A stretch of 64,000 nucleotides of DNA from an uncultured Chromatiales bacterium (GTDB lineage Bacteria > Pseudomonadota > Gammaproteobacteria > SZUA-140). This document shows, in pieces, positions 3 through 24,102 of the stretch. Location of the stretch: the NCBI GenBank assembly GCA_964437335.1, contig CAYTGL010000006.1, positions 24,523 through 88,522 of the forward strand, given 5' to 3'. Numbering within the stretch: position 1 is the stretch's first letter; the number at the start of each line of letters is the position of its first letter. Under the pieces are notes generated by a model. That model made no database searches. It saw only the letters and a list, made by a program, of their open reading frames with translations, and was not told the DNA's origin. A program made the position numbers and the translations under genes.

Positions 3-380
3 CGCATTCTTTGTGTCCTGCTGTTCTGCAGCCTGTTATATGGCTGCGGCCGGGAAGGCATTGCCCCCTATCCGCCACAGATCTGGGAAGACCTCATCAT
101 CGAGGTTGAGACCCGCCCGGCCAGGGTCGACGTAGGTATGATGGAATTTCTGGTTATCGCGAGCCGCCAGCCGAGGCGGCCCGCGCACAACCTGCTGGTG
201 TTCATCAGCATCGACGATACCGGCATCTGGCAACAGGCGATTCAGGACGGTCACATGGGAGTCTACCGCCGCGCGCTGCAGGTCACTGATCCGGAAAACA
301 ATGTGCTCAACATCAGGATCCGCTACGACGACCGTGAACGCACCATGCACTTCCCGCTCGCCCAGGAAGCGTCTAGTTAA
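3..380 (+). CDS. 5'-truncated lipoprotein, possibly YtkA/FixH-like
   Basis: The frame of ORF 138..380 is open back to position 3 and reads RILCVLLFCSLLYGC (lipobox-like), then a small beta-rich domain with GHMG. Confidence 0.6.
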   Translation, partial: RILCVLLFCSLLYGCGREGIAPYPPQIWEDLIIEVETRPARVDVGMMEFLVIASRQPRRPAHNLLVFISIDDTGIWQQAIQDGHMGVYRRALQVTDPENNVLNIRIRYDDRERTMHFPLAQEASS

Positions 381-933
381 AACTGATCGTTTTGCTGGTC
401 TCGAGCGTGAGCAGATTGTTTTCACGCTGTGCCCGCCTGTTTTTCAGGATCGTGCTCTCGGTCCAGCGCCTCAGGAACAGGATCCTCTCACCCCGCTGGT
501 CGCTGCAGACAGGACAGGTCAGGTAGGCAATATATAACTCCCTCGGACGGCATCCCTCGTCGACCAGTCGCATCTGCATCGCCTGTATGACCTTGTGACC
601 GGTGCTAAGGTTGCCGTGGTGCAGTTTTGCCCGCGCGACGAACGGAAATGGCAAGGTACTGAAATATCGGGACATCGAAGCGGAACCCTGTTTCAGCAAG
701 CGGGTCAGTGTGCCGCGCAACATCCCGGTCCGGGTCAGCAATAGTCGCGGCCAGGGCTCCTGCAGGTCCATCCGCTCGATGAGTCGCTGCTGTTTCCCCG
801 CGTAGAGGTCGAAGGCGATCGGCATGTGGATGAACATTGGCATCGGTAGCTGGATAACCGGGCAGCCGCCCAGATTGACATCACTGCCATCCCAGTCGGG
901 ATAGGCATCGGGACAGCCGCAGTCAGGCGCCAT
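373..933 (-). CDS. Conserved-looking hypothetical protein with N-terminal CGCP and C-terminal TCPVC motifs
   Basis: 186-aa ORF whose start overlaps the upstream stop. The motif layout (C.CP...WD...MF.HMP...Y.TCP.C) resembles a family loosely annotated as hydrolase. Confidence 0.7.
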   Translation of the reverse strand: MAPDCGCPDAYPDWDGSDVNLGGCPVIQLPMPMFIHMPIAFDLYAGKQQRLIERMDLQEPWPRLLLTRTGMLRGTLTRLLKQGSASMSRYFSTLPFPFVARAKLHHGNLSTGHKVIQAMQMRLVDEGCRPRELYIAYLTCPVCSDQRGERILFLRRWTESTILKNRRAQRENNLLTLETSKTISFN

Positions 934-1441
934 CTTTCCGGAAGATCGACCGGAAGGTCATCAGCACGTTCAGAAAGAAGATCCAGAACCCCATGCCCAT
1001 GACCGTCGCCACAATGCTGATGACCGGTGAGTAATAGCGGTGCACCTCGACCTGGGCGGCGGGATCGGTGAGCAATAAGTGGCCCTCGATGATGCCGAAG
1101 GTGATCAGTGTGCAGTAGAACAGACTCACCCCGGTTGCGGTCCACCAGAAAGTATGATTGATCAATCGCTTCGACCAGACCGGTTTGCCTGAGATCTCCT
1201 GAATCAGGTAATAAGTCGTCGCCATCCCGAGTATCACCATGCCACCGACGAGGTTCATATGGGCGTGGGCGAGCGGATCGATCATGTGCCCCGGACCTGA
1301 ATGCGGGGTTCCGACCGAGACCAGCCAGGCACGGATAGGCGGGAGGACCTGGATCACACCCTGCAGGGTACCGATCAGCAGGAATAATACGGATCCGAAG
1401 ATAAACTTGATCAGGTCACGATATTTCGGGTTCATAGGCAT
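923..1441 (-). CDS. Stand-alone 4-TM heme-copper oxidase subunit I-like protein (helices IX-XII unit)
   Basis: LQGVIQ...AHAHMNLVGG...YYLIQEISGKPVWSKRLINHTFW aligns with the C-terminal third of the CcoN at 10566..11975. Confidence 0.8.
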   Translation of the reverse strand: MPMNPKYRDLIKFIFGSVLFLLIGTLQGVIQVLPPIRAWLVSVGTPHSGPGHMIDPLAHAHMNLVGGMVILGMATTYYLIQEISGKPVWSKRLINHTFWWTATGVSLFYCTLITFGIIEGHLLLTDPAAQVEVHRYYSPVISIVATVMGMGFWIFFLNVLMTFRSIFRKDGA

Positions 1442-1620
1442 ATGTCACAGCGCAGTACAACCGCGCCCGCCAGCGGGCGCCGGATTATCGTCTGGTGATT
1501 ATTGCCGCGGCGTTGCGGGTTGTTACCACGGCGGATTTCGAGGTGATCCGTTCAGGTGGCCTGCGGTCCCGTCAGCACGGCAGGTAGTATATCGACTGCA
1601 GACCCAATATGCACCCCGAT

Positions 1621-1648
1621 CCGGCGGCGGGAGTGCGCCCGCCGCCGG
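1621..1648. other. Strong GC hairpin
   Basis: ccggcggcggg-agtgcg-cccgccgccgg is a perfect 11-bp stem between the 26-aa ORF and the mini-CcoN gene. Confidence 0.6.
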
Positions 1649-1691
1649 GAATCGCGGAAACAGCTTGCGGACTGGTAAAACGCGCTGACGT

Positions 1692-1772
1692 TCAGTCTAT
1701 GGTAGTGAAGGGCAGGATCACGAAAATCGTGAACGCAATACCGAATAACAACATCAGGACACCCAGCTTCAT
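1692..1772 (-). CDS. 26-aa hydrophobic micro-protein (MKLGVLMLLFGIAFTIFVILPFTTID)
   Basis: ATG preceded by AGGGGGG, one TM helix, and a promoter-like element upstream. Confidence 0.5.
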   Translation of the reverse strand: MKLGVLMLLFGIAFTIFVILPFTTID

Positions 1773-1896
1773 GACGAATACCCCCCTAGGTATGATTCCA
1801 CTATTGACAGCCATCCCGGTTCCTTGACCGGAATCGTCAACTACCCCCAAGCGACAGGCGCCGGCCGGCATCGACGGGCCACTCCCAAGCCTGCTT

Positions 1897-1924
1897 ACTA
1901 TAGCAAATCGATCGGGTATTACAA
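1897..1924 (-). promoter_or_regulatory. Putative sigma70 promoter TTGTAA-16-TATAGT with extended -10 TG
   Basis: The minus strand reads ttgtaa tacccgatcgatttgc tatagt, upstream of the 26-aa ORF and mini-CcoN unit. Confidence 0.5.
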
Positions 1925-2146
1925 ACAACCGGGGGATCCCCTAGGAGATTCGGTCCCGTCCGCTTGCAATATCCCTACCCGCATGAAATCTCGAAGTTTT
2001 ATTTCTTGCTGTCCGAATCAGGAAAAGGCCGCAACCGGGCGGCGGGCAATATTGCCATTTCGGGTGTGATTGGCTATAGTCAACCCTTGACGGTCCTCCC
2101 CTTGCCGGGGGATTGCATAACATGTCAGATACGGAGGGGTGACGGC

Positions 2147-2275
2147 ATGGTCGAAGAACTTGGTATTAATGTGTTGGTGCCGATCTTTGTGTTCAGCATC
2201 GTCGTTGTCGGCTCGATTCTGATCTCCAACATGGCGCTTGGCGATCTGAAGCGTCGGCGCGAGCGCGGAGAATAG
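2147..2275 (+). CDS. 42-aa single-TM small protein
   Basis: GGAGGGG RBS before the ATG at 2147. The product MVEELGINVLVPIFVFSIVVVGSILISNMALGDLKRRRERGE is a TM helix with a basic tail. Confidence 0.6.
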   Translation: MVEELGINVLVPIFVFSIVVVGSILISNMALGDLKRRRERGE

Positions 2276-2322: not shown

Positions 2323-2346
2323 TAAAGGGTCCGCAAGGACCCTTTA
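2323..2346. repeat. REP-like hairpin TAAAGGGTCC-GCAA-GGACCCTTTA at a convergent junction
   Basis: Perfect 10-bp stem with a GNRA loop that includes the stop codon of the minus-strand gene. Confidence 0.7.
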
Positions 2347-4950
2347 TTGTATCCGGCGATCGAGCGGCGCGAGCTCCCGCAGGGAATCCCGATACCGCGC
2401 CGCCAACACCTGGTTTCCCGCCCCAGCCTCGAGCCGCCACAACGCATGCAACACCTCGATGTGATCAGGCCGGATAGAGAGTATCCGCTCCAGCGCCGTC
2501 CGTCTATCGATGCCGAGGCTCATCCCCTGATCGAGACTCGCATACATGCGGTCAGCGATATCGAAACTGATCCATCGATCCCGTGGATTCGCCTCCAAGG
2601 CCATGTGCATGAGCCTGGCGGCCTCCTGAGCCCGGTCGCTCAGTGACGCGACCCAGGCCAGGGTCGCAATCTCTGTCGCGATGTAGGCGCCCTCGAACGC
2701 CTCGAAATTCTCGGCGGGGATCTCGAGCATCGCGGCAGCCGCCTCGACTGAAGGCCTGTCTGCCAGCAACCGGCCGGTCAGCCTGCCGAGATCGAATTCA
2801 CTGCCATAGCGCGCCTGGGGCAGACTGAATTCGATGCGCGGCGCCCATTCATCCTGAACCGGACCGTCGTCATGCCGGATTTCGCCCCAATATCTGCCGA
2901 GCCAGGTCCACAAGCCTTCGCCACCGGTCAGTGCATCGCGTTGTGACGATTCCATCCAGGTCATCCGTTCGATGACAGCTTCCATATCCAGCCGGCCCCG
3001 GGGCGTCCCCACCATCGCTACCCTGAAGCCGTCGATAAAGTAAGAGGCCCCGGGGAACACGCGCGCGAAACTGCGCATGACAATATCGAGCGAGCGCGCA
3101 TCAAACTGGTTCAGGGCCAGCCACTGCACAAATACGCCATCCTCGGCAAGACGCTCTCGCACGCGCCAGAACTGCTGCATTGACAGCAGATTACTGCGTC
3201 CAACCAGGTCGGGATGGAACAGGTCACCCACAATCACATCATAATTGCGACCGGCGGCGCGGAGAAAGCGTCTGACATCGTCGTGCACGATACGGGCCTT
3301 GTCGGTGATGCCGTGATTGACCGGCCCGAAGTACGTACCGGCAGCGGCGATTGCGCCTGCGGACAGTTCGACAGCGACTACTGACAGATCCGGAAGCGCG
3401 AGCGAACCCGCCGCGGTGATTCCGGTGCCGAGTCCGAGAAACAGCGCCTCCTTCGGCTCCGGATGCAATATCAGCGGCAGGCGCGCCATGTTCATCTGCG
3501 CCGCGACCGCAGCCGGCTCCGTGGATGCCTCCATGCGCCGCAGGTCCGACAACAATACCCGCTGGCCATCCGGCTGTTCGATGACATGGGTGATCGACAG
3601 CGCATCTTCGTACACCATCATGTCCCGACTGCCGGCATGCGGTCCAGGCAGCAGCCGGTTGACTTCCGGCAGGGAACCGATCGGCCAGCTGAGCGCAAGC
3701 AACAGTGGCAGCGCAAACCACATTCGCCGGGACGTCGACCAGGCCATGCCGAACAGAAAGAGCAGCAGCGCTGCGACACAAATCGTCGCTGGCGTCCCGA
3801 TCCACGGCACCAGGATGAAACCCGCCGCCAGGGCGCCGACCGAGGCGCCTGTTGCATTCGCGCCGTAGAGCCAGGCGCCGGTCAGGTTATCGCCGGCGCC
3901 GATGCCGCGGCTGAGCAGCGGCAGCCAGGCGCCGAGCACCAGCGTCGTCGACAGGGTCAGCAGCGCAATTGCCAGGCCTTGGGCAACCAGCGCCGCCCCG
4001 AGCGATCCGAATTCAGCGCCGTCCGCCCAGGCCGCGAGTACCGACAAGCCCGCAAGACTGAGGAGCGCCGTCGCGCTTGCAACGGGCGGGAACCACGTGA
4101 GACCCGTGGAAACCGGGATCCGCCTGGCCAGCAGGCTACCCAGCCCAATGCCGATCAGGAAGATGCACAGCAAGATTGCCAGCACATATTCGGTGCGCAG
4201 CAGAATCATGCCATACAGGCGCGTCCAGCCGACCTGCAGCATGAGCGCCGCTGCGCCTATGCCGGCATAAAACACCAGCGTTCGCCAGGGAGGGCGCGCG
4301 CTGGTCACGATCGTAGCGCCCGCCGCGAACTCGTGCCTTGCAGATAGCGAGATCAGTACCGCCGCGAGCGCGACCAGCAGGCCCAGGGTCGCGACCAGCT
4401 GGATCGCGCCTGCCCAGCCTACCAGCGGCAGCAACAGCAGCGGCACCAGGGCGCCGCTTGCTCCGCCCAGCGTGTTCAAACCGTACACCGAGACGATCGT
4501 CACTGGGGTGTTTTCGAAATAGCGTAATACCAGCGGGAAACCGACACCGAGCGCCAGCGCGGGAAAGAACAGGATCAGAAACGAAACTACGCCCTGCAGC
4601 AGAAACCACGACTTCAGCGGCAGGACAACTGCGATTGCGCCGAGCAATCCGTCAACGAAAGCAAACAGCCAGGGCATCGACAATGCGAATATCGCGACGC
4701 CCCCCTCGAGCAGCGCGAACAGGACCAGTGGGCGTGTAAACCGGCGTACTGACCAGGCTCCGAGCAAGCCGCCCGCGCCAAGGCCTGCCATGAATGCGAC
4801 CAGCGTGACGACCACGCCGAAGTTGCTGACGCCGAACTGGATGGACAACATGCGCACCCACAGGACTTCATAGGCGACGCCGGTGACACCGGACAGGAAG
4901 TAGATCCCGAGCAGCAGCGATGTCCACCTGCTGCCAGCGGTCGCCTGCAT
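2344..4950 (-). CDS. Fused MFS-like membrane domain / spermidine-synthase-like SAM-binding protein
   Basis: Multi-TM N-terminal half (SGVTGVAYEVLWVRML, LRTEYVLA) followed by LFLGLGTGITA, VELS and YDVIVGDLFHP. Start taken at MQATAG (4950). Confidence 0.85.
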   Translation of the reverse strand: MQATAGSRWTSLLLGIYFLSGVTGVAYEVLWVRMLSIQFGVSNFGVVVTLVAFMAGLGAGGLLGAWSVRRFTRPLVLFALLEGGVAIFALSMPWLFAFVDGLLGAIAVVLPLKSWFLLQGVVSFLILFFPALALGVGFPLVLRYFENTPVTIVSVYGLNTLGGASGALVPLLLLPLVGWAGAIQLVATLGLLVALAAVLISLSARHEFAAGATIVTSARPPWRTLVFYAGIGAAALMLQVGWTRLYGMILLRTEYVLAILLCIFLIGIGLGSLLARRIPVSTGLTWFPPVASATALLSLAGLSVLAAWADGAEFGSLGAALVAQGLAIALLTLSTTLVLGAWLPLLSRGIGAGDNLTGAWLYGANATGASVGALAAGFILVPWIGTPATICVAALLLFLFGMAWSTSRRMWFALPLLLALSWPIGSLPEVNRLLPGPHAGSRDMMVYEDALSITHVIEQPDGQRVLLSDLRRMEASTEPAAVAAQMNMARLPLILHPEPKEALFLGLGTGITAAGSLALPDLSVVAVELSAGAIAAAGTYFGPVNHGITDKARIVHDDVRRFLRAAGRNYDVIVGDLFHPDLVGRSNLLSMQQFWRVRERLAEDGVFVQWLALNQFDARSLDIVMRSFARVFPGASYFIDGFRVAMVGTPRGRLDMEAVIERMTWMESSQRDALTGGEGLWTWLGRYWGEIRHDDGPVQDEWAPRIEFSLPQARYGSEFDLGRLTGRLLADRPSVEAAAAMLEIPAENFEAFEGAYIATEIATLAWVASLSDRAQEAARLMHMALEANPRDRWISFDIADRMYASLDQGMSLGIDRRTALERILSIRPDHIEVLHALWRLEAGAGNQVLAARYRDSLRELAPLDRRIQ

Positions 4951-4966
4951 GCTCAGTTCCGGGCTG

Positions 4967-5350
4967 TTAGAAAGGGAAGAACCAGACGATCGCTGTGACG
5001 GCATGGACGATCGCGAGGAAGACACTGACTCCGGCGAATATCATGTGTGCCAGAAACACCTGCTTGCCGAACGCCACCATCGAGACACCGAGCACGGCGG
5101 TGGTGATAATGGTGATCAGCAGGACAAAGCCCATCATGAACAGGATCTGGTGCTTGCGTTCGTCACTGATCGCGACGACGTCGCTCTTGACGACCTCCCC
5201 CTCGGTGAACCCCCGTAAGACATCGAAGGGCTTGTCTGTGTCGTCTTCCGCGCGGGAGACGCCGGGGGAGACCATTACACCGACCAGGACCAGCAGGAGA
5301 CATACGATCCACAGCCTGGTCGACCGGTTACTGCCTGCAAACACTGTCAT
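4967..5350 (-). CDS. Hypothetical membrane protein with signal-peptide-like N-terminus and two C-terminal TM helices
   Basis: 127-aa ORF with a 4-nt overlap with the upstream gene. His residues lie in the TM segments (LAHMIF, IVHAV). Confidence 0.7.
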   Translation of the reverse strand: MTVFAGSNRSTRLWIVCLLLVLVGVMVSPGVSRAEDDTDKPFDVLRGFTEGEVVKSDVVAISDERKHQILFMMGFVLLITIITTAVLGVSMVAFGKQVFLAHMIFAGVSVFLAIVHAVTAIVWFFPF

Positions 5351-5601
5351 CGCCGGTTTTCGTTATCGTCGTTGTCGGTCGGGTCATCGGTCTCATCGGG
5401 CTTCGCGAACCTCCAGTGCATGATTGCCATCAGGATCAGCGGCACCATGACCAGGGGCAGCAGAAATACGAAGATCATCCACGGGGTATTGATGCTGACA
5501 GTCACCCAGCGATAGCTGTCAAAGGCGTGCGCGGCCTGTGACTGGCCCATCAACAGCGAGAGGAATATCCCGAATTGAAATGATCGTGCTGTAATGCTCA
5601 T
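5347..5601 (-). CDS. Hypothetical small membrane protein
   Basis: 84 aa, signal-like N-terminus, one TM helix, acidic tail, and 4-nt overlaps on both sides. Confidence 0.7.
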   Translation of the reverse strand: MSITARSFQFGIFLSLLMGQSQAAHAFDSYRWVTVSINTPWMIFVFLLPLVMVPLILMAIMHWRFAKPDETDDPTDNDDNENRR

Positions 5602-6662
5602 TCGACATCCTGCGCGACTCTGAATCCGAAGAAATCAGATGCATAGTTGGGCAACGAAAAATTCCGGTGAAAGGACGAGGTCGAGAACGGATCGCTCTTC
5701 CAGGACCCGCCACGGATGACCTTGTAACGCTCGTTTGTCGGCACGAACTCCGCGATCGACAATGACCGGAGCGAAGCGGAATCCGGAATCGCCGGCAGGC
5801 TCGCGTAGAACATGTGCTCGGGCGCCGGCGATCCGGGATAGGGCAGAAAATCGTCATCGACCCATTCGGCGATGTTCCCAGCCATGTCCATGACGCCGTA
5901 GGGACTCGCGCCATTCTGATACCGCGTCACTTCTGTCGTTGATCCTACACGATAATAGGTGTTCAGGCGATCCGGATCCATCCGGTTACCCCATGGCCAG
6001 CGCCAGCCTTCAGGACCTCTGGCGGCCCGCTCCCATTCCGCTTCGGTCGGCAAACGCATGCCGGCCCATTCGGCATATCTTTTCGCATGGAACCATGAAA
6101 TCATCGCCACCGGATGCAATTCGATACCCGGCGGTATCTTGCCGCCGGTCCAGTGTATCGGTGGCCGCTGATTGGTCGCAGCGATATAGCGCGCATACTG
6201 GGCATTTGTCACGGGATATTTCGCGATACGGTACGCCGCCATCTCGACGATATGCTCAGGCTGGTTCTGCACGTCCGCGCGCGGCATGTTGGTCCCCACC
6301 GCGTAGGGGCCGGCCGGAATCTCGATCATCGTACCGATCTCGCGCCACTGCTCGGGCGTCAGTAATGCCTCCGCCTCTTCAACACTGTAGCTGGCTACCA
6401 GTCCGGGCATATACTGATGCTCGACCTCGAGGAAAAGATCCTGCCCGGCCGCGCGTTGCCTGTCCCTCGCCTCGTTGATATCGTAGGTCACCTTGCCGCG
6501 CATATCGTTCATACGGTTTTCACCGAGCTTCAGCACATGCAGGCTTCCGCCGAGGAAAGTCAGCACGAGACACGTGACGAGGGTTGCGGTCATGTACCGC
6601 TTCCTGATTTTCACCTGCCGCTTGTCGCGGAGGACTCCCTGGGGTGTATAGCTGATGCTCAT
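5598..6662 (-). CDS. Membrane-anchored FGE-sulfatase (SUMF1/EgtB/PvdO) fold protein
   Basis: IPAGPYAVG, YPVTNAQY, HPV..ISW..A..YA.WAGMRLPTEAEWERAARG, DMAGNIAEW, RGGSW and GFRVA motifs. Confidence 0.9.
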   Translation of the reverse strand: MSISYTPQGVLRDKRQVKIRKRYMTATLVTCLVLTFLGGSLHVLKLGENRMNDMRGKVTYDINEARDRQRAAGQDLFLEVEHQYMPGLVASYSVEEAEALLTPEQWREIGTMIEIPAGPYAVGTNMPRADVQNQPEHIVEMAAYRIAKYPVTNAQYARYIAATNQRPPIHWTGGKIPPGIELHPVAMISWFHAKRYAEWAGMRLPTEAEWERAARGPEGWRWPWGNRMDPDRLNTYYRVGSTTEVTRYQNGASPYGVMDMAGNIAEWVDDDFLPYPGSPAPEHMFYASLPAIPDSASLRSLSIAEFVPTNERYKVIRGGSWKSDPFSTSSFHRNFSLPNYASDFFGFRVAQDVE

Positions 6663-7171
6663 CGGTCAGAACCCTTGGGTAATTCCGCAGTGCTCGCCGG
6701 CTTGGGATCAATCCTGCCGTACTTCTTGTGCAGTTTATGGAGATTGTGCCGTTCCGTCCTGCCATAGGTTCGCCTGACCATGACTTCGCCGATGACGCCT
6801 CCGACCGTCGCAAACTCGACGCAGAGTATGATCACGAATATCCAGTAGCCGATCGGCAGGATGACCCCGCCGTCAGCCGGCGTGGTTCCATACACCTGAT
6901 AATAGAGGATCGAGTGAACGATGAGCGCAGGGGCATGCGCAAGTATTTTCCCGCCCAGTCCATAAACCAGCGATACGGCAATGCCTGCAAGAAAGGGCAC
7001 GAAAAACAGCGTCAGGACCCACTGGGGCGTATAGGTCGCCGGGCCATAATAAAATTCCAGCCTGACCCCGAGCAACTTTCCTCCGAGGTAAACCACGACC
7101 GCGCCTGCTGCAACCGCGCCCGCGGCGACGCAGCAGTCCATCAGGCGGCTTTTTATCTGCGGTCTATTCAT
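6659..7171 (-). CDS. Hypothetical 4-TM membrane protein
   Basis: 170 aa, hydrophobic, with overlaps to both operon neighbours. Confidence 0.75.
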   Translation of the reverse strand: MNRPQIKSRLMDCCVAAGAVAAGAVVVYLGGKLLGVRLEFYYGPATYTPQWVLTLFFVPFLAGIAVSLVYGLGGKILAHAPALIVHSILYYQVYGTTPADGGVILPIGYWIFVIILCVEFATVGGVIGEVMVRRTYGRTERHNLHKLHKKYGRIDPKPASTAELPKGSDR

Positions 7172-7655
7172 TAACCGGTTGATACGTCAGGCCTGTCAGA
7201 ACTTCGTATTCCGCACGCTTGACTTCCTCGAGGTACCAGTCCTCAACCTTCAGGCTGGCAAGGTAGGCAGCCAGCAGACGCCGCTCCTCTTCCGGCAGAT
7301 GCGCATAGGATGGCATGCGGTACTCAGCCTTCAGGCGAGACGGCAGGATTGTCTGGGGATCTCCGGAGGAGATATATTCGTAGAACCACTCCTCGCTTCT
7401 GAGTGTACCGATGCCATCGAGCGCGGGGGCGGGCACGCTCTGCAACCAGTTTCTGACCAGCCACAGGGAATGGCAGTTCGTGCAGTCATTGCGCTTGACG
7501 ATCGCTTCCGCCTGAATCTGCATTTCACGGGGCATGGTCGTGTAGAAAGGTATTCCGGGATCCGGCTCACCCGTACTCCTGATACCGTTGTAGGTCGCGA
7601 GACCGATGACCAGCGCGGCTATAGCGATGTAGATGTTCCGCTCACCGGTTCGCAT
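7164..7655 (-). CDS. Membrane-anchored monoheme cytochrome c (CcoO/NorC-like)
   Basis: N-terminal TM helix, CTNCH, APALDGIG..RSEEW and a distal RMP. Confidence 0.85.
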   Translation of the reverse strand: MRTGERNIYIAIAALVIGLATYNGIRSTGEPDPGIPFYTTMPREMQIQAEAIVKRNDCTNCHSLWLVRNWLQSVPAPALDGIGTLRSEEWFYEYISSGDPQTILPSRLKAEYRMPSYAHLPEEERRLLAAYLASLKVEDWYLEEVKRAEYEVLTGLTYQPVNE

Positions 7656-7929
7656 GCTTCTCAGCGTGCCGCCGTGCCTTCTCTTTCAGAAACTCGCCTC
7701 TCAGCTCAGTCTGATGCTCGATGACTTCCCGCGACTTGGCATACTCCTTCGGGTCCATCTTATCCTCGTCATCCTTGTCGAAAACGACATACTTGATGTC
7801 TTCGTCGAACTGGTAGTTCTTCGCCGCCCAGCGCAGGCCGACAATTACACCGATCAGAATGCCGGCTGCGGCGATCATCCATACATAGATAGTCCAGCCG
7901 TCGGGTAATGAATGCAGAAATTCTTTCAT
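7642..7929 (-). CDS. ccoS: CcoS-like cbb3 maturation protein
   Basis: TM helix followed by WAAKNYQFDEDIKYVVFDKDD, resembling the CcoS/FixS W.....QFDD motif. Confidence 0.65.
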   Translation of the reverse strand: MKEFLHSLPDGWTIYVWMIAAAGILIGVIVGLRWAAKNYQFDEDIKYVVFDKDDEDKMDPKEYAKSREVIEHQTELRGEFLKEKARRHAEKHANR

Positions 7930-7943
7930 GGTCTTGCTCCTCG

Positions 7944-8270
7944 CTACACAAGGTAGCCTTCGATCAACTGAATGTAACCAAGTATCACCGCGAAGATCAT
8001 GCCGCCGACCATCGCGCCGAACATGATCTTTTCGCCGCGTTTCAACTTCCCTTCGCCCTTGGGCATGTACAAATAAAGGATATATGAAAAAATAATCAGT
8101 GAAACGATCAGGAATACAAAGATTCCCTGACTGAATTTCTGCGATCTCAACCCTTCAATGCTGAGATCCAGACCCCAGATGTACGCGTCCGGGGCCGTCG
8201 ACGCAACGGCCGGCAGTATTTGACTGGTTGCGCCAAAAAAGCCTGCCAGGATTGAAATGAACTCGGACAT
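7944..8270 (-). CDS. Hypothetical membrane protein
   Basis: 108 aa with two clear TM helices; first gene after the AT-rich spacer. Confidence 0.7.
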   Translation of the reverse strand: MSEFISILAGFFGATSQILPAVASTAPDAYIWGLDLSIEGLRSQKFSQGIFVFLIVSLIIFSYILYLYMPKGEGKLKRGEKIMFGAMVGGMIFAVILGYIQLIEGYLV

Positions 8271-8678: not shown

Positions 8679-8831
8679 TTACTTGAACGGGTTGTCGTCG
8701 TTGTCGCCTGCCTGCTTTTTCTCCCAATACCGGTAGCTGTCGACAAAGAAGACCCCGTACACGGCAAAGCACAGGAAGACCACCGCGATTATTGCAGCGA
8801 ATACTCCCGGTGCGTAATCAATGTCGATCAT
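8679..8831 (-). CDS. 50-aa single-TM protein, CcoQ-like by size and position
   Basis: Manual translation gives MIDIDYAPGVFAAIIAVVFLCFAVYGVFFVDSYRYWEKKQAGDNDDNPFK. It has an ATGA overlap with the upstream stop. Not in the ORF track. Confidence 0.7.
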   Translation of the reverse strand: MIDIDYAPGVFAAIIAVVFLCFAVYGVFFVDSYRYWEKKQAGDNDDNPFK

Positions 8832-9493
8832 GCTGAGACCCCCTTCTTCATGTTCGGCTTCTTAGAGAAATGCGGCAGACGCTTGCAGACAATGACCATC
8901 GCCAGAATAAAGTAGGACACATAGAGCACGTCGATCGTATAGCCCTTGTCCCACCACGGTTGCGTGCGTTTACGCAGGCCATCCGGTCGGTACTCGCCCT
9001 CAAAATTCGCGAGCACCAACTGATCGTAGACGACGATATAACTTTCGAGGCCATAAGGTCCGCCGGCGACCGCGGCTTCCCTGATCTGGGGAGCAATCAA
9101 CTGCAGGTCATACCACGTCAACTGCGGACACTGGCGATCGATGAGCCCGGCCAGGCGACTGTCGTGGCCGCTGGCGATATGAGCCTCCTTCGCGTGGCGA
9201 CACACGAAATTCTTCTTTTCCTCGGGCGTCTTCAGTGCCTGGACTTGAGGGGAATCCATTATTTCCACCATCGGGTAATACAACTCGGCTGTCGGCCTCA
9301 GCCCCCAGATCGGCATCGTGACCATAAAAGCGGTAACAATGATCAAACCGAGCAGAAAAGTAACCGGAAACGGGAGACGGTTGTTGCCTTCCCACAGACC
9401 GCCCTGCTTTTCGTGCTCCCAGCGCTGAATCGCTTTCCTGTTTTCCTCTTCGTCAGCCATGCTGTACAGAGGATTATCCATTTTCCAGGCCAT
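8828..9493 (-). CDS. CcoP N-terminus-like 2-TM protein without heme c motifs
   Basis: HEKQGGLWEGNNRLPFP plus a TM helix resembles the CcoP HEWDGI.ELNNPLP segment. It directly follows ccoO and has no CxxCH. Confidence 0.65.
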   Translation of the reverse strand: MAWKMDNPLYSMADEEENRKAIQRWEHEKQGGLWEGNNRLPFPVTFLLGLIIVTAFMVTMPIWGLRPTAELYYPMVEIMDSPQVQALKTPEEKKNFVCRHAKEAHIASGHDSRLAGLIDRQCPQLTWYDLQLIAPQIREAAVAGGPYGLESYIVVYDQLVLANFEGEYRPDGLRKRTQPWWDKGYTIDVLYVSYFILAMVIVCKRLPHFSKKPNMKKGVSA

Positions 9494-9508: not shown

Positions 9509-10468
9509 TTATTTCAAGCTGGTCAAAACCCAGTCGATTACTGCCCGGATCTCGCTATCACGTGCATATTCCGGTACCTCCGGCGGATAGGCCCGCAAGC
9601 CCTGGCGATACTCGTTATACTCGCGACGCCACTTCGGATAGTCGATCTTGTTGCCCTTGGCATCGACGCGACCCCACAGATAATCGAAGCGCGGCATAAT
9701 CGAGTTCGGCTGAGTCAGGCGAGGATTGAAGAAGTGCATCATCATCCACTCGCGCGACGAATTGCGGGAGGCTACGTGCAATATGTCGGGCGCCTTGCGA
9801 TCCGATCCAAATGAAGTCGGGTTTTCACCGTTCATGTCGCCGACATACGGAGGCCAGCCAAAGATCTGGAAGTCCTGGGCTGCCTCGGGCAGCAGCGTAT
9901 GGCACCACCAGCAGCCTTCGGTGACATAGACCGTCTTGCCCCTGGCGACATAGCGGTGATTCTCGTCTCCGGTGGCACGCAATATTTCTTCAGGCATCCA
10001 TCCGCGTGTCGCGGTCGCGTTTTCGATGTAGGCCCACTCCTCGCCCTTGCTGCTCTTGCCATAGCTGATCGTGAAAACCGCACCGGTGTTTTTGTCCGCC
10101 TGGTCGATGCGTCCCTTTTGAATGCTCAGCTGTTGTACTGTCGATCCAAGATTCGCTGGATGGTTGACCGTCGATGCGAACGGCGTGCCCGGCTTGTAGA
10201 CATAGGCACGAATCGCGGGATCAATTGGTGCGCCGGTCTTCGGATCCTTGCTCAATATCACCGTAATCGGCTTGCCCGCACCACGCACAAACGGATCTTC
10301 ATAGGAAAATCCGATTACGCGACCATTCGACAGCGCCTTGTCCAGCCCCACCCAGGTCGAGTCCGCCGACCTGAAGTCGAAGCTGGGCAGGAACAGGGTT
10401 ATCGTCATCGACAACCCGAGCATTGCGCCGACGCCTACTGATCCGAGTTTATATTCTTGGAATGCCAC
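9509..10468 (-). CDS. ccoO: cbb3-type cytochrome c oxidase subunit II with a large periplasmic insertion
   Basis: G..VY..EGCWWCHT, FGSDRKAPDI, W...HF.NPR..QPNSIMPRFDYL. GTG start after a GAGGGGAG RBS. Confidence 0.9.
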   Translation of the reverse strand: MAFQEYKLGSVGVGAMLGLSMTITLFLPSFDFRSADSTWVGLDKALSNGRVIGFSYEDPFVRGAGKPITVILSKDPKTGAPIDPAIRAYVYKPGTPFASTVNHPANLGSTVQQLSIQKGRIDQADKNTGAVFTISYGKSSKGEEWAYIENATATRGWMPEEILRATGDENHRYVARGKTVYVTEGCWWCHTLLPEAAQDFQIFGWPPYVGDMNGENPTSFGSDRKAPDILHVASRNSSREWMMMHFFNPRLTQPNSIMPRFDYLWGRVDAKGNKIDYPKWRREYNEYRQGLRAYPPEVPEYARDSEIRAVIDWVLTSLK

Positions 10469-10565: not shown

Positions 10566-11975
10566 TTACCTTTCGTAGGCCAGCTCGTGCGCATAACGGC
10601 CCTTGGGCACCACGGTCCCCTCACGGGCGGTCATATACATGTTGTAGAGCCAGACCATGTTTCCGGTGAACACCATCGTGCCGCCGATCCAGCGTCCGAT
10701 CATGTAGGGATGCTCGGCGACGACGACGTCGATATACGGCACCTGGTATACCTTGGCGGCGCCCTGAATCAGACCCGCGACCGTCATCGTGATCCAGTAG
10801 ATGCAGAATCCGATGAGCACGAACCAGTAGTGGAAGTTGGCAAGCACCAGCGAGTAGAGCTTTCTGCGCAGCACCTGCTGCAAACCGAAGTACACGGCCG
10901 CGATTTCGAGGAAGCTCGACATGCCGAGCAGCGCGAGGTGCGCGTGCGCCACGATCCAGCCGGTGCCGTGGATGTACCAGTTGATCGCGCGGGTCTGCTG
11001 GAAACCGCCCTGCATGTTCAGCGGGATGGCGAGCAGCACGCCGGTGACCGAGAACTTGATCTCGATGTTCTCGACGAACATGCTCCAGCGCCCTTTCATC
11101 GTCAGCAGGATGTTGGCGACGAACGCGACCGCCGGGATCAGGATCAGCACGCCCTCGACCGAAGCGAAGGACTTCAGCCACTCCGGCAGCGGCGCCGACA
11201 GCAGGTGATGCGAGGCCGGCGTCGAGTAGAACGCGATGATCGACCAGAAATGCAGGTGACCGACGCGGTGCGAGTACAGCGGATTACCGGTCAGCTTCGG
11301 GATCGTATAGTATGCGATCGCCGCGGCCACCGGCGTGATCCACAAGCCGAGCACGTTGTGCGCGAACCAGAAGGTCAGATAGCCCTCGGTCAGTCCGGTC
11401 AGATTGAACAGTTCCGGAGACTGGCCGACGACGAACGTCGTCATGACGAAGAAGATACAGGCCCCGAAGAACCAGTTCGTGATGTAGATACCCTGCGTTT
11501 TTCGCTGCGCAATGGTCATCCAGACGTTGATTCCCAGCGGCAGCAGTACACCGAATATGATGACCAGGTCGATCGGCCAGATCAGGTCGGAGTACTCGCG
11601 GCCTGAGGTGAATCCCGTCCACAGCAGGATCAGGCCGAGCGACAGACCGACATTCCACATAAAGGCAGTCCAGAGACCGAGCTTTTCAGACCACAGTCTG
11701 GTGTTGCCGAGGGCCGGCGTCATGTACATCATGGTCATCGCGAAGGCCATCGAGATCCAGCCCAGGATGACCGCGAGCACGTGCACCTGGCGCATGTGTC
11801 CGAACGCAAACAACTCGGTCCCCGTCACCATATCCGGGAAAGCGAGTTTGGACGCATTGAACGAGCCGAGGCCGGTGCCTACGATGAACCACAGGATCGA
11901 GGAAAAACCGAAGAAGAGCGTCGCTGTTCCCGGCGGGATATCCTCAGATTTCGCGAACAAATATTTCAGTATCAT
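10566..11975 (-). CDS. ccoN: Divergent cbb3-type (C-family) heme-copper oxidase subunit I
   Basis: QVHV (heme b), REYSDLIWPID, WFAHN (CuB), YSTPASHH (Tyr plus CuB His pair) and WIVAHAH (b3/b ligands). GGAGG RBS. Confidence 0.95.
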   Translation of the reverse strand: MILKYLFAKSEDIPPGTATLFFGFSSILWFIVGTGLGSFNASKLAFPDMVTGTELFAFGHMRQVHVLAVILGWISMAFAMTMMYMTPALGNTRLWSEKLGLWTAFMWNVGLSLGLILLWTGFTSGREYSDLIWPIDLVIIFGVLLPLGINVWMTIAQRKTQGIYITNWFFGACIFFVMTTFVVGQSPELFNLTGLTEGYLTFWFAHNVLGLWITPVAAAIAYYTIPKLTGNPLYSHRVGHLHFWSIIAFYSTPASHHLLSAPLPEWLKSFASVEGVLILIPAVAFVANILLTMKGRWSMFVENIEIKFSVTGVLLAIPLNMQGGFQQTRAINWYIHGTGWIVAHAHLALLGMSSFLEIAAVYFGLQQVLRRKLYSLVLANFHYWFVLIGFCIYWITMTVAGLIQGAAKVYQVPYIDVVVAEHPYMIGRWIGGTMVFTGNMVWLYNMYMTAREGTVVPKGRYAHELAYER

Positions 11976-13599: not shown

Positions 13600-14058
13600 T
13601 CAGCGATAGACTTCCAGCAGCGCCTTGGCGCTCTTGAACTCGGAATCGCTGGGGAACTGGCCGATGTGAAAGATGTGCTGCTGTTTCCTGCCTTCAAGGT
13701 CCATCCCGGTCAGCGCAAAGGTCTTGCCGCCTATTTCCGAGAAGAAGCGCAGATCCTTGACCAGCACTGCGTTCGTTCCGTTCCTCAGTGTCAACGTAAC
13801 ACGATCCTTGTCGATCCCGATCGCAACCGGTGCTGACGGCAGCAGCATCATGCGAGTCCTGAGGATACGATTCGCGCCGACCATAAAAAACAGGCTGGCG
13901 AGAAATATCAGCAGATAGGACCAGGCGGCGTTCGGCCCGTAGGAGAGTCTCAGTCCGATGAGCCCGAGAAAACAGACCGTCGGGACATAAAGCAACAAGT
14001 CCCATGCCATGCCTTTCCGGTCCTGCACCAGTTCGTAGCGGGATTCCTTTCTCGACAC
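13600..14058 (-). CDS. Hypothetical protein with two N-terminal TM helices and a soluble beta domain
   Basis: 152 aa, 4 nt downstream of the thioredoxin-like gene. Confidence 0.7.
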   Translation of the reverse strand: MSRKESRYELVQDRKGMAWDLLLYVPTVCFLGLIGLRLSYGPNAAWSYLLIFLASLFFMVGANRILRTRMMLLPSAPVAIGIDKDRVTLTLRNGTNAVLVKDLRFFSEIGGKTFALTGMDLEGRKQQHIFHIGQFPSDSEFKSAKALLEVYR

Positions 14059-14062
14059 GCGA

Positions 14063-14599
14063 TCATCCCTTCTTCCGTTCGATCACGAGCGTTTCAATGA
14101 CCTGATCGAGCTCCCCATACAGAAGGCGACCGGGGCGCTTGAAGCGCACAATGCCCTCCTCGTCGATCAGGAAGGTCCAGGGCTCTCCGGTGACGCGAAA
14201 CGCGACAAAGGCGCCGGGGTTCTGGTATTGATCCATGTGCAGGAAGACGATGCCTTGCTCTTCGTACTTGTCCATCATCGCCGACAGCATCTGCAACTGC
14301 TTGTCGCAGACCGTGCAGTGCGCCGGGGTCGCGAATGCGATGACGACCGGGCGGCCTTCCTTCAGCACATGATCGAGCGAATATTTGTACATCCGCGGAT
14401 CCGGATGGCGATAAGAAGTCAGGCGCGACAAATCCTGGCCAACGTCATCCAGGGTCACGGTGCGGATAACCGGGGCCTTCGTGCCGAGCTTGAGGGTTCC
14501 GACCGGAGATTCGACGCAGGCCCCGAGAACCAGGACAGCGACGAACAGTACGGCGAGCTTAATCGACGCGATTATGCGGCTTGCCGGTCCCTCAGCCAT
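14063..14599 (-). CDS. Thioredoxin-fold lipoprotein with CxxC
   Basis: Lipobox LVLGAC, then FATPAHCTVC and GEPWTFLIDEEG. Confidence 0.8.
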   Translation of the reverse strand: MAEGPASRIIASIKLAVLFVAVLVLGACVESPVGTLKLGTKAPVIRTVTLDDVGQDLSRLTSYRHPDPRMYKYSLDHVLKEGRPVVIAFATPAHCTVCDKQLQMLSAMMDKYEEQGIVFLHMDQYQNPGAFVAFRVTGEPWTFLIDEEGIVRFKRPGRLLYGELDQVIETLVIERKKG

Positions 14600-15152
14600 A
14601 GGTCTTCTCCTGCTGATAATTCGGCTCCTGCAGATTGATCTCGGATGAGCGTCTGCTGGTGCGATAGATATTATAACCCCAGATGCAATTGGCCAGCAGC
14701 ACGAGCGTTCCGAAAATGCCGCCCGCCATCATTAACGGCAGCACCAGCATCGTCACCTCGTTCGGCGGCAGGGACACGCTCGCGCGTCCGCCGACAACGC
14801 CGGCCGCGCCGAAACAGCCAACCAAGCCGAGCAGGCCGAAGTTATGCATCCAGAAATGCACCTTGACGAGGGCGAGGCTGTAGATCGGGCGCTTGACCAG
14901 GCGCGGTACCAGGTAATAGATCGCACCGAAAATCGCCATCTCGACCCAGCCGAGCAGGTTCAGATGGGCATGGCCCAGCATGATCTTGTCGCCGTGCGGC
15001 CGGTTGCGGATGAAATGCGCGACATCGGGCATCATGTTGACGAGGACGCCCCAGCTGAATCCGATGATGCTGTAGATGATGCAGGCGTAGATGAACCACA
15101 GGGTGTACCGGTTGAAATCCCGTTCCCGTTCAGTCAAGCGCGGCTCGCTCAT
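14592..15152 (-). CDS. Second stand-alone 4-TM heme-copper oxidase subunit I-like protein
   Basis: GHAHLNLLGWV...YYLVPRLVKRPIYSLALVKVHFW matches CcoN helices X-XI. Confidence 0.85.
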   Translation of the reverse strand: MSEPRLTERERDFNRYTLWFIYACIIYSIIGFSWGVLVNMMPDVAHFIRNRPHGDKIMLGHAHLNLLGWVEMAIFGAIYYLVPRLVKRPIYSLALVKVHFWMHNFGLLGLVGCFGAAGVVGGRASVSLPPNEVTMLVLPLMMAGGIFGTLVLLANCIWGYNIYRTSRRSSEINLQEPNYQQEKTYG

Positions 15153-15176
15153 GTCGGTTTCCCTCCTCGCTTCAAC

Positions 15177-15749
15177 TCACTCGTTTTCGACAGGCTGAAT
15201 CTCACGGATATCCCTGTACTGCTCACGCCAGGAATCGGGCACCCACATGTTCAACATCCGGTCGATGAATGGCGAATCTCCCGGTGGCGGCACCTTCGCG
15301 ACCGACGAGCCCGCATCGGCTCTCAGTTCAGACAGGAAGATCGCGATCAAGCGGCGATCCTCTTCCGACATGCCCGCGACGTAGGCGGCTTCTTTCGGCG
15401 GGGACCCGTGATCGATCGTCGGCGCGCCATAGACTTCTTCGGGATTTGCAAGGAAGCGCTCCAGGTACTCGAGCGAACGCGCCGAACCGATGCCGTCGAG
15501 CGACAGCCCCATGCTCGTGCCCGCGCGCAGGGCCCGATGGCAGGCATTGCAGTTGGCCCGCTGATACAGGCCGGCGCCCTTGCGGCCCTCTTCGGAGAAA
15601 TCGAAATACGTGAGCTGCTCGAATAGCGGGGTATCCGACTTCATACGCACCGTTTCGAGCCCGATGTAGACGAATATGGCGCTGACAAAAAACACGCCGA
15701 AGATCATCAGAAGGATTTTTTCGCCCAGCTTCAGAGGATTTTTACTCAT
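15177..15749 (-). CDS. Membrane-anchored monoheme cytochrome c
   Basis: N-terminal TM helix, CNACH and LSLDGIGSARSLEYLERFLANP. Confidence 0.85.
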   Translation of the reverse strand: MSKNPLKLGEKILLMIFGVFFVSAIFVYIGLETVRMKSDTPLFEQLTYFDFSEEGRKGAGLYQRANCNACHRALRAGTSMGLSLDGIGSARSLEYLERFLANPEEVYGAPTIDHGSPPKEAAYVAGMSEEDRRLIAIFLSELRADAGSSVAKVPPPGDSPFIDRMLNMWVPDSWREQYRDIREIQPVENE

Positions 15750-15802
15750 GATATCCAGCCATCGCCTGTTGTGTTGCCGATATCCCCTCCCTCTGGTTCA
15801 GA

Positions 15803-15833
15803 CAAAAAATGAGGGCGGTAATGCCGCCCTCAT
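15803..15833 (-). terminator. Rho-independent terminator after cytochrome c4
   Basis: atgagggcgg/ccgccctcat stem followed by a U tract on the minus strand. Confidence 0.75.
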
Positions 15834-15974
15834 CATTAGCTTCCGGAGTATTGTTATTAGTGCGCCGGTCGAATCAGAATGCCGCAGAGATTTCCATCGC
15901 AGCTGATACGAAACCGGACGGAGGTCGGGACCGTCCGGCGCGTTCAACGCACGCGCCGGACGGTTGCCGGTGGT

Positions 15975-16817
15975 TTATTGACCTATTGCCTTCATCCTAT
16001 CATGAGCCACATGGACACCGTGGTCATAAGGCGTGCGGTTGCTGCCGGTCGCAAAGTAGGGATCCGCTACCGAGAGGTAGGCTGCGGCGTCCAGAATATC
16101 CTGATCGGATAACTTCTGGGCCACCTTCTGCATCTGCCCCATCGGATCGTTGGCCCTGCTGCCGTCGCGCCACTGCCTCAACTGGGCGACCAGGTACGTA
16201 TAGCGCTGCTGGCCGATCATCGGGTAAACCGGCGGTGCGCCGGCCCCGCCCACGCCATGGCAGGACTTGCAGGCCGGTACGCCAGGTCCCTGACTGCCGA
16301 GATCACGCGGATAGCCGTCAGTCCTGACCGGGCTGCCAAACTCGACGAGTTGACGGCCACGATAGGGCCTGCCGACCTCGACGCCGCTCGCGGCCAGCTC
16401 TTCGAGGTAGCTCTCGTTGAACAGATATGGGCTGGCAGGAAATTTGTTGGCGAGATAGGTCGCGACATCGATCCTGTCCTGAGGACTCAGCGCCGCGGCG
16501 AATGCGTTCATGACCACGCCCGCGCCCTGCGGCGTACGCTTGTTAGCGGCGAAGTCCTCGAGTTGCTTGTACAGGAACGTAAAGAACTGACCGGCAATCC
16601 GGGGAGCGCCCAACGCATCAATTCCGGTCCCGTCTTCACCGTGACAGGACAAGCAGGCTGCCGCATCGCCTTTCCCTTGTGTAAAGATTTTATGGCCATT
16701 GGCCATGTCGCCCGGCCCGAGGGAGTACAAACCCTTCGCAGCCATCGCATTACCCGTCGACAGCGCAAACCCGATCATCACCGCAATCGCTGTCAATACC
16801 AGCTTCTTGTGTCCCAT
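15975..16817 (-). CDS. Dihaem cytochrome c4-type periplasmic cytochrome
   Basis: Signal peptide, CLSCH and CKSCH, PRIAGQ...YL.KQL and QQRYTYLVAQL. Start taken at MGHKK after GGGAGGGG. Confidence 0.9.
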   Translation of the reverse strand: MGHKKLVLTAIAVMIGFALSTGNAMAAKGLYSLGPGDMANGHKIFTQGKGDAAACLSCHGEDGTGIDALGAPRIAGQFFTFLYKQLEDFAANKRTPQGAGVVMNAFAAALSPQDRIDVATYLANKFPASPYLFNESYLEELAASGVEVGRPYRGRQLVEFGSPVRTDGYPRDLGSQGPGVPACKSCHGVGGAGAPPVYPMIGQQRYTYLVAQLRQWRDGSRANDPMGQMQKVAQKLSDQDILDAAAYLSVADPYFATGSNRTPYDHGVHVAHDRMKAIGQ

Positions 16818-16918
16818 TTGCAGACCCCTCCCGCGTGTAAACTCGCCACTTTCCGTAGAGTCACCGCCGCAGTTCACTGCGATAGCTCCTCGCGAAGATT
16901 TCTATTGTTATTCAGAGC

Positions 16919-19175: not shown

Positions 19176-19176
19176 A

Positions 19177-19992: not shown

Positions 19993-20007
19993 ATTCAGGC
20001 ATCGCCG

Positions 20008-20871: not shown

Positions 20872-20877
20872 GCCGCA

Positions 20878-22251: not shown

Positions 22252-22255
22252 CGTA

Positions 22256-23982: not shown

Positions 23983-24102
23983 GGGCGATCATTATACGCG
24001 GATTTTTTTTCAGCGATGGGAATGTATAACCGGAGTCCGGGTCCGCCGACTGCGGGCGCCAGAGATGGTGATGCCACGCCGATCGCTTCGGCAATCTCCC
24101 GC

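Follow-up and report, generated by a model that had tools for sequence, protein, structure and literature searches.

A stand-alone four-helix relative of cbb3-type oxidase subunit I, paired with a GyrI-fold Cys protein in a respiratory island of an uncultured Chromatiales bacterium

We analysed a stretch of 64,000 nucleotides (contig CAYTGL010000006.1; hereafter the window) from an uncultured Chromatiales bacterium, and within it a small gene, here called unit B, that encodes a four-helix relative of CcoN, the subunit I of cbb3-type cytochrome oxidases. Unit B is an open reading frame (ORF) running from an ATG to a stop codon and encoding 172 amino acids (coordinates of all features are collected in Table 1). 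The original prediction, made from the letters of the DNA, had described an intact oxidase-like unit with its own start and stop and characteristic His motifs, a second such unit about 13 kb away, and translational coupling to a neighbour with a Cys motif. All of these features are present; they all lie on the minus strand, which the prediction had left unstated. The second unit, a paralogue called unit A, is found 13.15 kb from unit B. The partner gene is the next ORF downstream, and its start lies 11 nt before the unit B stop codon so that the two genes overlap, which supports the proposed coupling.

Unit B carries the motifs PLAHAHMNLVGG and TPHSGPGHM. Pfam COX1 (PF00115) matches it with 36.1 bits (cut-off 34.8) over positions 308-411 of the 436 positions of the hidden Markov model (HMM), corresponding to the last third of subunit I. 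The NCBIfam equivalog for ccoN gives 23.7 bits against a cut-off of 583, and the other NCBIfam oxidase equivalogs are also far below their cut-offs. Neither unit B nor its partner has a Pfam or NCBIfam match to CcoS/FixS, CcoG/FixG, CcoH/FixH, CcoI or SenC, the known cbb3 biogenesis families; a role in assembly would accordingly be one of analogy, not of membership.

Two of the predicted sequence features need to be narrowed. The His-rich loop is present, of which only GPGH52M is kept across an alignment of 55 family members (alignment A1) while H47 is variable. Similarly, unit B has the string TLQGVIQ and the local CcoN-like gene has NMQGGFQQ, as predicted. The profile of unit B can be aligned to the local CcoN from residue 57 onwards, which stops short of helix IX, and the motif of the unit B family is [HQ]GV[LIV]Q, in which only G28 and Q31 are invariant ([HQ]G..Q). 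QGxxQ is therefore a likeness between the two proteins and not a proven common helix-IX signature.

An AlphaFold2 model of unit B built on the family alignment has four long helices and a short periplasmic one (predicted local distance difference test, pLDDT, 87; predicted template-modelling score, pTM, 0.79). Its best PDB matches by Foldseek are the CcoN chains of cbb3 oxidases (3mk7_A, 8smr_E and 9g6b_A), with TM-scores of 0.71-0.72 and a root-mean-square deviation of 3.2-3.5 Å over 169-172 columns. As modelled, unit B thus has the fold of CcoN helices IX-XII. Residues 57-166 align to residues 342-453 of the local CcoN, where H134 pairs with the His at the start of helix XII. A profile search of PDB sequences aligns H59 and H61 to H345 and H347 of Pseudomonas stutzeri CcoN (3mk7_A), which reportedly ligate haem b3 and haem b, respectively (Buschmann et al. 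2010). Unit A likewise aligns to residues 332-462 of cbb3 CcoN (E 6e-15), and among the haem-copper oxidases (HCOs) the closest branch is the C-family, ahead of the nitric oxide reductases (NOR) and the A and B families.

The likeness of unit B to P. stutzeri CcoN therefore consists of the fold of helices IX-XII and of the aligned HxH pair. In contrast to CcoN, unit B has four helices instead of twelve, lacks the helix II His, the helix VI His, the helix VII HH and the cross-linked Tyr, and has a longer IX-X loop with GPGHM; the identity is about 30%. Of the six metal-ligand His of an HCO only the helix-X HxH (H59, H61) is present, and a chain of 172 amino acids with four long helices and one short in the model falls short of the twelve-helix core. 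Without the CuB ligands unit B cannot reduce O2 alone and is not a functional oxidase subunit I.

The profiles of the two units (A1 for unit B and A3 for unit A) match three segments of CcoN in 3mk7_A and 8smr_E, namely the regions of helix II and helix VI (both weaker) and of helices X-XI. This three-segment match is a trace, in the sequence, of the pseudo-threefold symmetry of subunit I.

Unit B belongs to a large and uniform family. Searching 5.8 billion clustered proteins returned 842 clusters of homologues, essentially all of 160-200 amino acids, and a scan of one genome per species found the gene in 472 species genomes. Most of the carriers belong to the Zetaproteobacteria, among them Mariprofundus ferrooxydans PV-1 and M. 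erugo, or to uncultured Gammaproteobacteria of a Chromatiales-like kind. Across the 55 aligned members G49-P-G and D55-P-L-A-H59-A-H61-x-N63-x-x-G-G are invariant, together with many other positions, and H52, M53, E119 and H134 are nearly invariant. The ratio of non-synonymous to synonymous substitution rates (dN/dS) is 0.11-0.24 against six orthologues, indicating that the family is under purifying selection.

These results bear on the simplest alternative, namely that unit B is a functionless decaying fragment or a recent partial duplication of ccoN, as its short length and a partial COX1 match barely above the Pfam threshold might suggest. No DNA-level similarity to ccoN was found, the sole match elsewhere in the window being 30 nt at 80% in the HxH region of unit A, and the protein is 30% identical to the local CcoN and 26% to unit A. 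The near-identity to a ccoN segment that a recent duplicate would carry is thus missing, and with the low dN/dS and the low protein identity the duplication idea fails. Decay is equally contradicted by orthologues of equal length, which number in the hundreds and span two classes of Proteobacteria, by a conserved partner gene and by a transcribed orthologue (see below), and we regard this explanation as refuted, with practically no probability left to it. The original prediction of a functional family is therefore upheld by the 842 clusters of unit B and 782 of unit A with their uniform lengths, by the invariant motifs and the selection on them, by conserved synteny, and by transcription of the orthologues in Candidatus Tenderia electrophaga.

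The unit A family is even more strongly conserved than that of unit B, with H61-x-H63-x-NLLGWVEMAIF and H99-FW-x-H103-N as invariants (A3). Homology between the two families extends across all four helices (hhalign of A1 against A3, probability 98.8, E 1e-16), and in the same comparison the GPGHM loop of unit B is an insertion relative to unit A. We propose to describe such proteins as HCO-thirds: unit B is a unit with four transmembrane (TM) helices, has HxH at the start of helix 2 and matches the A1 profile from end to end.

The partner of unit B is itself a distinctive protein. It begins with MAPDCGCPD and ends with YLTCPVC, and the four Cys of this CGC...CPVC pattern (C5, C7, C140 and C143; CxC...CxxC) are invariant among its homologues (alignment A2). 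The protein has no signal peptide or TM segment and should therefore be cytoplasmic. By sequence it finds nothing in the PDB and nothing in NCBIfam; Pfam PF20603 ('Bact_hydrolase') matches with 33.3 bits (cut-off 27), a family for which our literature search returned nothing. The AlphaFold2 model (pLDDT 87.6) has a duplicated beta-alpha-beta-beta fold of the GyrI-like type, and Foldseek matches it (probability 1.0, TM-scores 0.5-0.6) to CTR107, the Lin2189 hydrolase, SbmC/GyrI, the ligand (C) domain of BmrR and the SOUL/p22HBP haem-binders. Lin2189 is the source of the PF20603 family name, and its identity to the partner is only 10-11%. The original prediction had thus rightly noticed the Cys-motif neighbour and missed its GyrI-like fold.

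The partner shares this fold and the PF20603 membership with GyrI-like proteins, and differs from them by the invariant CxC...CxxC that clamps its N and C termini and by its obligate pairing with a membrane protein. In 75 of the 81 related loci it is the gene immediately downstream of unit B; the junction is a 4-nt overlap in locus L001 and a small gap or overlap elsewhere. Taken together, unit B is a conserved and selected four-helix protein, derived from HCOs and equipped with two haem-ligand His, that is paired with a GyrI-fold protein with four Cys in an oxidase island.

Table 1. Features of the window discussed in the text (positions count from the first letter of the window)
Feature	Position	Strand	Remarks
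Lipoprotein gene, 3' part	3..380	+	converges on partner gene; cut by window edge; lipobox LLYGC
Partner gene	373..933	-	186 aa; start overlaps unit B end by 11 nt
Unit B	923..1441	-	172 aa
Non-coding upstream region	1442..2146	-	between unit B and spermidine-synthase-like gene
Promoter-like site	1526..1498		upstream of unit B; consensus scan match only
Promoter-like site	1924..1897		upstream of unit B; consensus scan match only
42-codon single-TM ORF	2147..2275	+	conserved in 21 loci
Accessory genes	2344..8270	-	108-aa protein, 95-aa protein, cytochrome c (163 aa), 170-aa membrane protein, FGE-sulfatase-domain protein, 84- and 127-aa membrane proteins, fused MFS/spermidine-synthase-like protein (893 aa)
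FGE-sulfatase-domain and MFS/spermidine-synthase-like genes	2344..6662	-	among the accessory genes
95-aa single-TM protein	7642..7929	-	among the accessory genes
221-aa conserved protein	8828..9493	-	no known family; core oxidase set
FixO/CcoO-like	9509..10468	-	319 aa; Pfam FixO 53 bits
CcoN-like, full length	10566..11975	-	469 aa; Pfam COX1 243 bits
Unit A operon	13600..16877	-	the five genes that follow
152-aa membrane protein	13600..14058	-
Thioredoxin-like lipoprotein	14063..14599	-	CxxC; Pfam
Unit A	14592..15152	-	186 aa; stand-alone paralogue; Pfam COX1 53.8 bits
Monohaem cytochrome c	15177..15749	-	Pfam
Dihaem cytochrome c	15975..16877	-	Cyc1-like; Pfam
Remainder of window	17682..64000		ordinary housekeeping genes

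The genes around unit B form a respiratory island (Table 1), which we mapped by tblastn of the window proteins against the 81 loci. Zetaproteobacteria and Tenderia-like Gammaproteobacteria have in common an atypical CcoN-CcoO pair, cytochromes c, unit A, the unit B-partner pair and accessory genes. Within the oxidase core, the C-terminal 144 amino acids of CcoN, including NMQGGFQQ, are 83-99% identical across the compared loci. The operon encodes neither CcoP nor CcoQ and has the conserved 221-aa protein instead. The FixO/CcoO-like protein has about 170 extra N-terminal residues before its FixO match (residues 176-266).

The operon of unit A has the same gene order in the window, in L001, in L082-L085 and in the published Tenderia map. 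It lies directly upstream of CcoN-FixO in the loci centred on unit A, and unit B is nearby in L084/L085 and in L001. The unit B-partner pair is found on the same strand and downstream in the gammaproteobacterial relatives, and on the opposite strand about 3 kb away in Zetaproteobacteria. For example, the gap between the oxidase genes and the unit B pair of PV-1 holds cytochromes c, a lipoprotein and a CcoG-like polyferredoxin. In none of the nine loci inspected from Zetaproteobacteria does a unit A occur within 10 kb of unit B.

As had been predicted, unit B stands in a separate operon. A gap of 900 bp with a small gene on the opposite strand separates it from the upstream gene, so that unit B forms a transcription unit of its own. 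The small gene is a 42-codon ORF located just past the 3' end of the spermidine-synthase-like gene and opposite to it, and a similar ORF of 42 amino acids is found in L084 upstream of unit B on the same strand. Another candidate, a 26-codon TM ORF upstream of unit B (1692..1772), is poorly conserved, being found in 3 loci only, and was rejected as a conserved component. We also rejected a minus-strand ORF of 129 amino acids (36..425) as a third gene of the operon; it is a spurious antisense reading of the plus-strand lipoprotein gene. That lipoprotein has no Pfam match and is homologous to a 128-aa lipoprotein of the M. ferrooxydans PV-1 island (L056, 11382..11768).

The accessory genes adjoin unit B in 34-49 of the 81 loci, on either strand. 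Among them, the 95-aa single-TM protein has a FixS/CcoS match below threshold (17.4 bits, cut-off 23.1) and may be a divergent CcoS; a comparably weak FixS/CcoS match is found in a 98-aa protein of the L089 oxidase operon. The FGE-sulfatase-domain protein (called a kinase in Tenderia) and the 893-aa MFS/spermidine-synthase-like protein are kept in the islands of both Gamma- and Zetaproteobacteria.

Beyond the unit A operon the window encodes a PMT_2-like membrane protein, Fpg/MutM, an ABC-type transport operon, PtsP-like, RpoN, RecG and SpoT/RelA proteins, a HemN-like radical SAM protein, AsmA, a DUF11/CARDB surface protein, an Lcl_C-domain protein and an Asp-Al_Ex permease. Synteny with L082-L085 extends to the Fpg and ABC-transport genes.

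The cluster with two such units had already been described, a point that the original prediction missed: Eddie et al. 2022 (bioRxiv 10.1101/2022.05.06.490989) map the region in Ca. Tenderia electrophaga as a conserved 26-gene cbb3-1/cbb3-2 region, label its gene 4 (ALP51724.1) and gene 26 (ALP51744.1, Fig. 2B) 'truncated CcoN', and regard the whole as 'a sort of alternative complex IV'. The gene order of the window agrees with this published list, in which a gene of about 170 amino acids is followed by an ALP51743-type gene, and the same layout is found in L001-L006. The locus tag of ALP51744.1 is Tel_00520 and that of ALP51724.1 is Tel_00415. Tel_00520 has 519 nt, the same length as the window gene, and overlaps Tel_00515 by 4 nt. 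From synteny and gene length we infer that unit B of the window is the orthologue of the published ALP51744.1. The PV-1 orthologue WP_009851750.1 (L056), annotated 'cbb3-type cytochrome c oxidase subunit I', is 59% identical. Unit B resembles both proteins in the 519-nt length of the gene, in its neighbours and in the gene order of the island, and no structural difference separates them.

The existence of the gene was therefore already known, and the window feature is a stand-alone variant of a known superfamily. The literature gives a gene listing and expression values; the family analysis, the partner fold and the oligomer hypothesis are added here. In the papers searched, the term 'truncated CcoN' does not occur outside Eddie et al., and our literature search returned nothing relevant on a triplication origin or on stand-alone thirds of HCOs. 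Emerson 2013, considered as a prior description, uses 'truncated' for haemoglobins.

The Tenderia orthologues are transcribed, according to the metatranscriptome of Eddie et al. 2017 (PMC5371394, Tables S1 and S3). One column of Table S3, apparently length-normalised log2 values, gives 9.30 for unit B (Tel_00520), 9.14 for its partner (Tel_00515) and 9.64 for unit A, compared to 10.35 for the CcoG-like gene, 13.25 for CcoN and 12.91 for CcoO (PMC5371394). After length normalisation the transcripts of the units are thus about 10-16-fold below the CcoN-CcoO core and similar to the CcoG-like gene: the unit B orthologue is transcribed at the level of accessory genes. The possibility raised with the original prediction, that the gene is not transcribed, fails as far as it can be tested, transcription being shown for an orthologue only.

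These values also bear on the interpretation of Eddie et al. 2022, in which units A and B, the cytochromes c and the full CcoN-CcoO would make up one large membrane complex, an alternative complex IV that moves electrons or pumps protons and in which the two units are stoichiometric subunits. This is the published interpretation of a conserved 26-gene region, and it agrees with several features of the island: its products are mostly membrane proteins or cytochromes, a monohaem cytochrome c with a membrane anchor always comes before unit A, in an echo of the CcoO-CcoN pairing, and the haem-ligand His are retained. Against it stand the orthologue transcripts, which are about 10-16-fold under those of CcoN and CcoO, and the placement of unit B in an operon of its own with a cytoplasmic partner, often on the opposite strand or kilobases from the oxidase genes. 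Evolution is also much faster in the units than in CcoN: the unit B of L001 is 63% identical to the window copy, compared to 90% for CcoN. On balance we consider this interpretation doubtful.

A new lead comes from fused relatives of the units. When the unit B family HMM was run on 1.84 billion cluster representatives, 355 matches were obtained, and the top matches are not single units. They are fused proteins of 625-730 amino acids (some 860-1120) with three full-length unit-B-like repeats, to which the unit B profile gives 63-145 bits for repeats 1 and 2 and 16-93 bits for repeat 3, far above CcoN. Unit B and these B-like repeats have the motifs GT[VI]QGV.Q, IDP..HAH.N and G..EG in common. 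Examples among P0289-P0313 are P0289 (669 aa), P0290 (PZS00847.1 of Ca. Chloroheliales, annotated as hypothetical) and P0309, which has an SCO1/SenC domain. Similarity scores of unit B are 192-263 to the B-like repeats, 124 to the last third of CcoN and 112 to unit A.

A second fused family is compact, with about 400-440 amino acids, and closer to unit A; it has HxH in all three repeats (P0355, P0377, P0388 and P0426; L090, L091 and L092). Within each fused family all three repeats are of a single type, either B-like or A-like, with no mixture. In any one fused protein the repeats are more like one another than like those of another family, implying that units were triplicated repeatedly.

The B-like fused proteins have lost His in an asymmetric way. 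Among 24 of them, the equivalent of H59 is His in 3 in repeat 1 and in all 24 in repeats 2 and 3, and the equivalent of H61 is His in all 24 in repeats 1 and 2 and in a single protein in repeat 3, where 22 have Gln. The resulting pattern is xTH in repeat 1, HAH in repeat 2 and HAQ in repeat 3. Helices II, VI and X of HCOs each stand between two of the three pores, and the first His of helix X faces the pore of the previous unit while the second faces that of the next. Read with this geometry, the fused proteins would keep two complete cross-repeat His pairs (repeats 1/2 and 2/3) and leave the third pore empty.

Their genomic context leads back to oxidases and copper chaperones. P0289 and P0309 sit in COX1-FixO operons. 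At the end of such operons, a three-repeat protein follows COX1-FixO and a YtkA-like gene in L086 (8001-10010), and follows COX1-FixO/cytochrome c genes in L089 (8001-10637), where it is fused to SCO1/SenC; a compact three-repeat protein adjoins SCO1/SenC in L090. Compared to unit B, the three-repeat proteins have three units in one chain and extra C-terminal helices or domains, the B-like family shows the asymmetric His loss, and the organisms that carry them belong to other phyla. Beside them we saw no GyrI-like partner; a 171-aa gene after the three-repeat protein of L087 was considered and has no similarity to the partner.

The fused proteins also inform the idea, put forward in the original prediction, that units A and B assemble together as a hetero-oligomer. 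The window, L001, L084/L085 and Ca. Tenderia each have both units in one island, the homology of the two covers all four helices, and packing of such units is seen in the fused relatives. Each fused family is homotypic, however, and both single units keep both His, with no complementary loss such as the asymmetric fused proteins display. Moreover, the two units have different operons and partners (a cytochrome c and a thioredoxin-like protein for unit A, the GyrI-like protein for unit B), and the nine Zetaproteobacteria loci have no unit A within the 10 kb inspected around unit B. A hetero-oligomer is possible, nothing points to it specifically, and we consider it quite improbable.

Our best overall explanation, which we hold with slightly better than even confidence, is that unit B is a functional, vertically conserved, trimer-forming and cofactor-binding accessory protein of the atypical CcoN-CcoO oxidase, and not an oxidase itself. 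We infer its oligomeric state, cofactor and role as follows. Unit B descends from helices IX-XII of a C-family HCO subunit I, or has a common ancestor with them, and has kept the helix-X HxH and the conserved polar residues of the periplasmic side (H52, D55, N63, E119 and H134). Three copies, probably a homotrimer, most likely form a ring that would reproduce the twelve-helix architecture of subunit I; the trimer is suggested by the fused relatives, which carry three units, and by their His pattern, which matches the geometry of helices II, VI and X. At each interface of the ring the two neighbours would contribute one His each to the binding of a cofactor, most likely haem b, with a metal ion as the alternative.

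The partner would be co-produced and remain in the cytoplasm, with a ligand-binding GyrI-like fold of the kind found in the SOUL/p22HBP haem binders. The pair would be a low-abundance accessory module of the CcoN-CcoO oxidase of the same island. A link to the oxidase and to its biogenesis is drawn from the CcoN/FixO island, from the three-repeat proteins in COX1-FixO operons or with SCO1/SenC, and from the CcoG-like gene in PV-1. The most plausible job of the pair would be cofactor handling or assembly; an auxiliary electron-transfer module is another, less likely option.

Low-abundance, membrane-bound factors in or beside oxidase operons are familiar from cofactor insertion: Surf1/Shy1 for haem a, and CcoS, CcoG and SenC for cbb3 oxidases. 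Surf1, for example, holds haem destined for subunit I. Unit B, in contrast, has no sequence or fold relationship to any of these factors, and the analogy, suggested by context and expression level, is functional only. To our knowledge, no haem-b insertion factor beyond CcoS is known for cbb3-type oxidases.

The cofactor may alternatively be copper. The conserved His and Met would then bind copper instead of haem, and unit B would be a membrane copper channel or a chaperone feeding CuB. Invariant GPGH-M and HxH at the periplasmic face would suit such a role, as would the SCO1/SenC and YtkA-type copper chaperones fused to or beside the three-repeat relatives, the thioredoxin-like CxxC protein after unit A and the CcoG-like cupric reductase homologue in the PV-1 island. 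On the other hand, H59 and H61 are at the exact positions of the CcoN haem ligands, and every solved HCO has inter-unit pores of haem size. As Sco, YtkA and similar proteins are ordinary in oxidase operons, their presence nearby may reflect nothing more than the oxidase. We therefore judge the copper alternative unlikely.

Several points weigh against the trimeric accessory protein that we favour. Its oligomeric state is suggested by a Rosetta-stone argument, drawn from the sequences of fused relatives. Copper would be as compatible as haem with the conserved His-Met (GPGHM) and with the recurrent Sco, YtkA and thioredoxin neighbours, and the lower mRNA level of the units is no proof of a sub-stoichiometric protein. 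One archaeal-looking compact three-repeat relative has DUF438-hemerythrin-PAS and ScdA_N/DUF1858 genes as neighbours and no oxidase in the vicinity, so that more than one role may exist in the superfamily. The window sequence was traced only to metagenomic DNA runs, with no RNA run among them. Our literature search found no functional or family-level analysis, and we know of no experiment on any member of the family.

A bolder form of the trimer can be put forward only tentatively, as we think it rather unlikely in its entirety. Both A and B units would form C3 rings with one bis-His haem per interface, as modular, copper-less counterparts of subunit I; along with the two three-repeat families, fused independently, they would show from sequence that the HCO fold arose by triplication of a four-helix HxH unit; and the rings would serve as cofactor-loading platforms for cbb3-type oxidases, handling haem together with copper chaperones of the Sco type.

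The terminal oxidase of the island, which is highly expressed, is apparently the main one in neutrophilic iron oxidisers and in cathode-oxidising electroautotrophs, and assigning a role to the two 'truncated CcoN' genes would help to complete models of their respiratory chains. The delivery of haem b to CcoN is an open problem in the assembly of cbb3 oxidases, for which a mimic of subunit I beside copper chaperones would be a concrete candidate. The His pattern of the fused relatives gives a testable model both for the assembly of unit B and for the origin of the oxidase fold. With single units and two kinds of three-unit fusions that have complementary His patterns, the pseudo-threefold symmetry of subunit I becomes a testable, sequence-level scenario for the origin of the HCOs.

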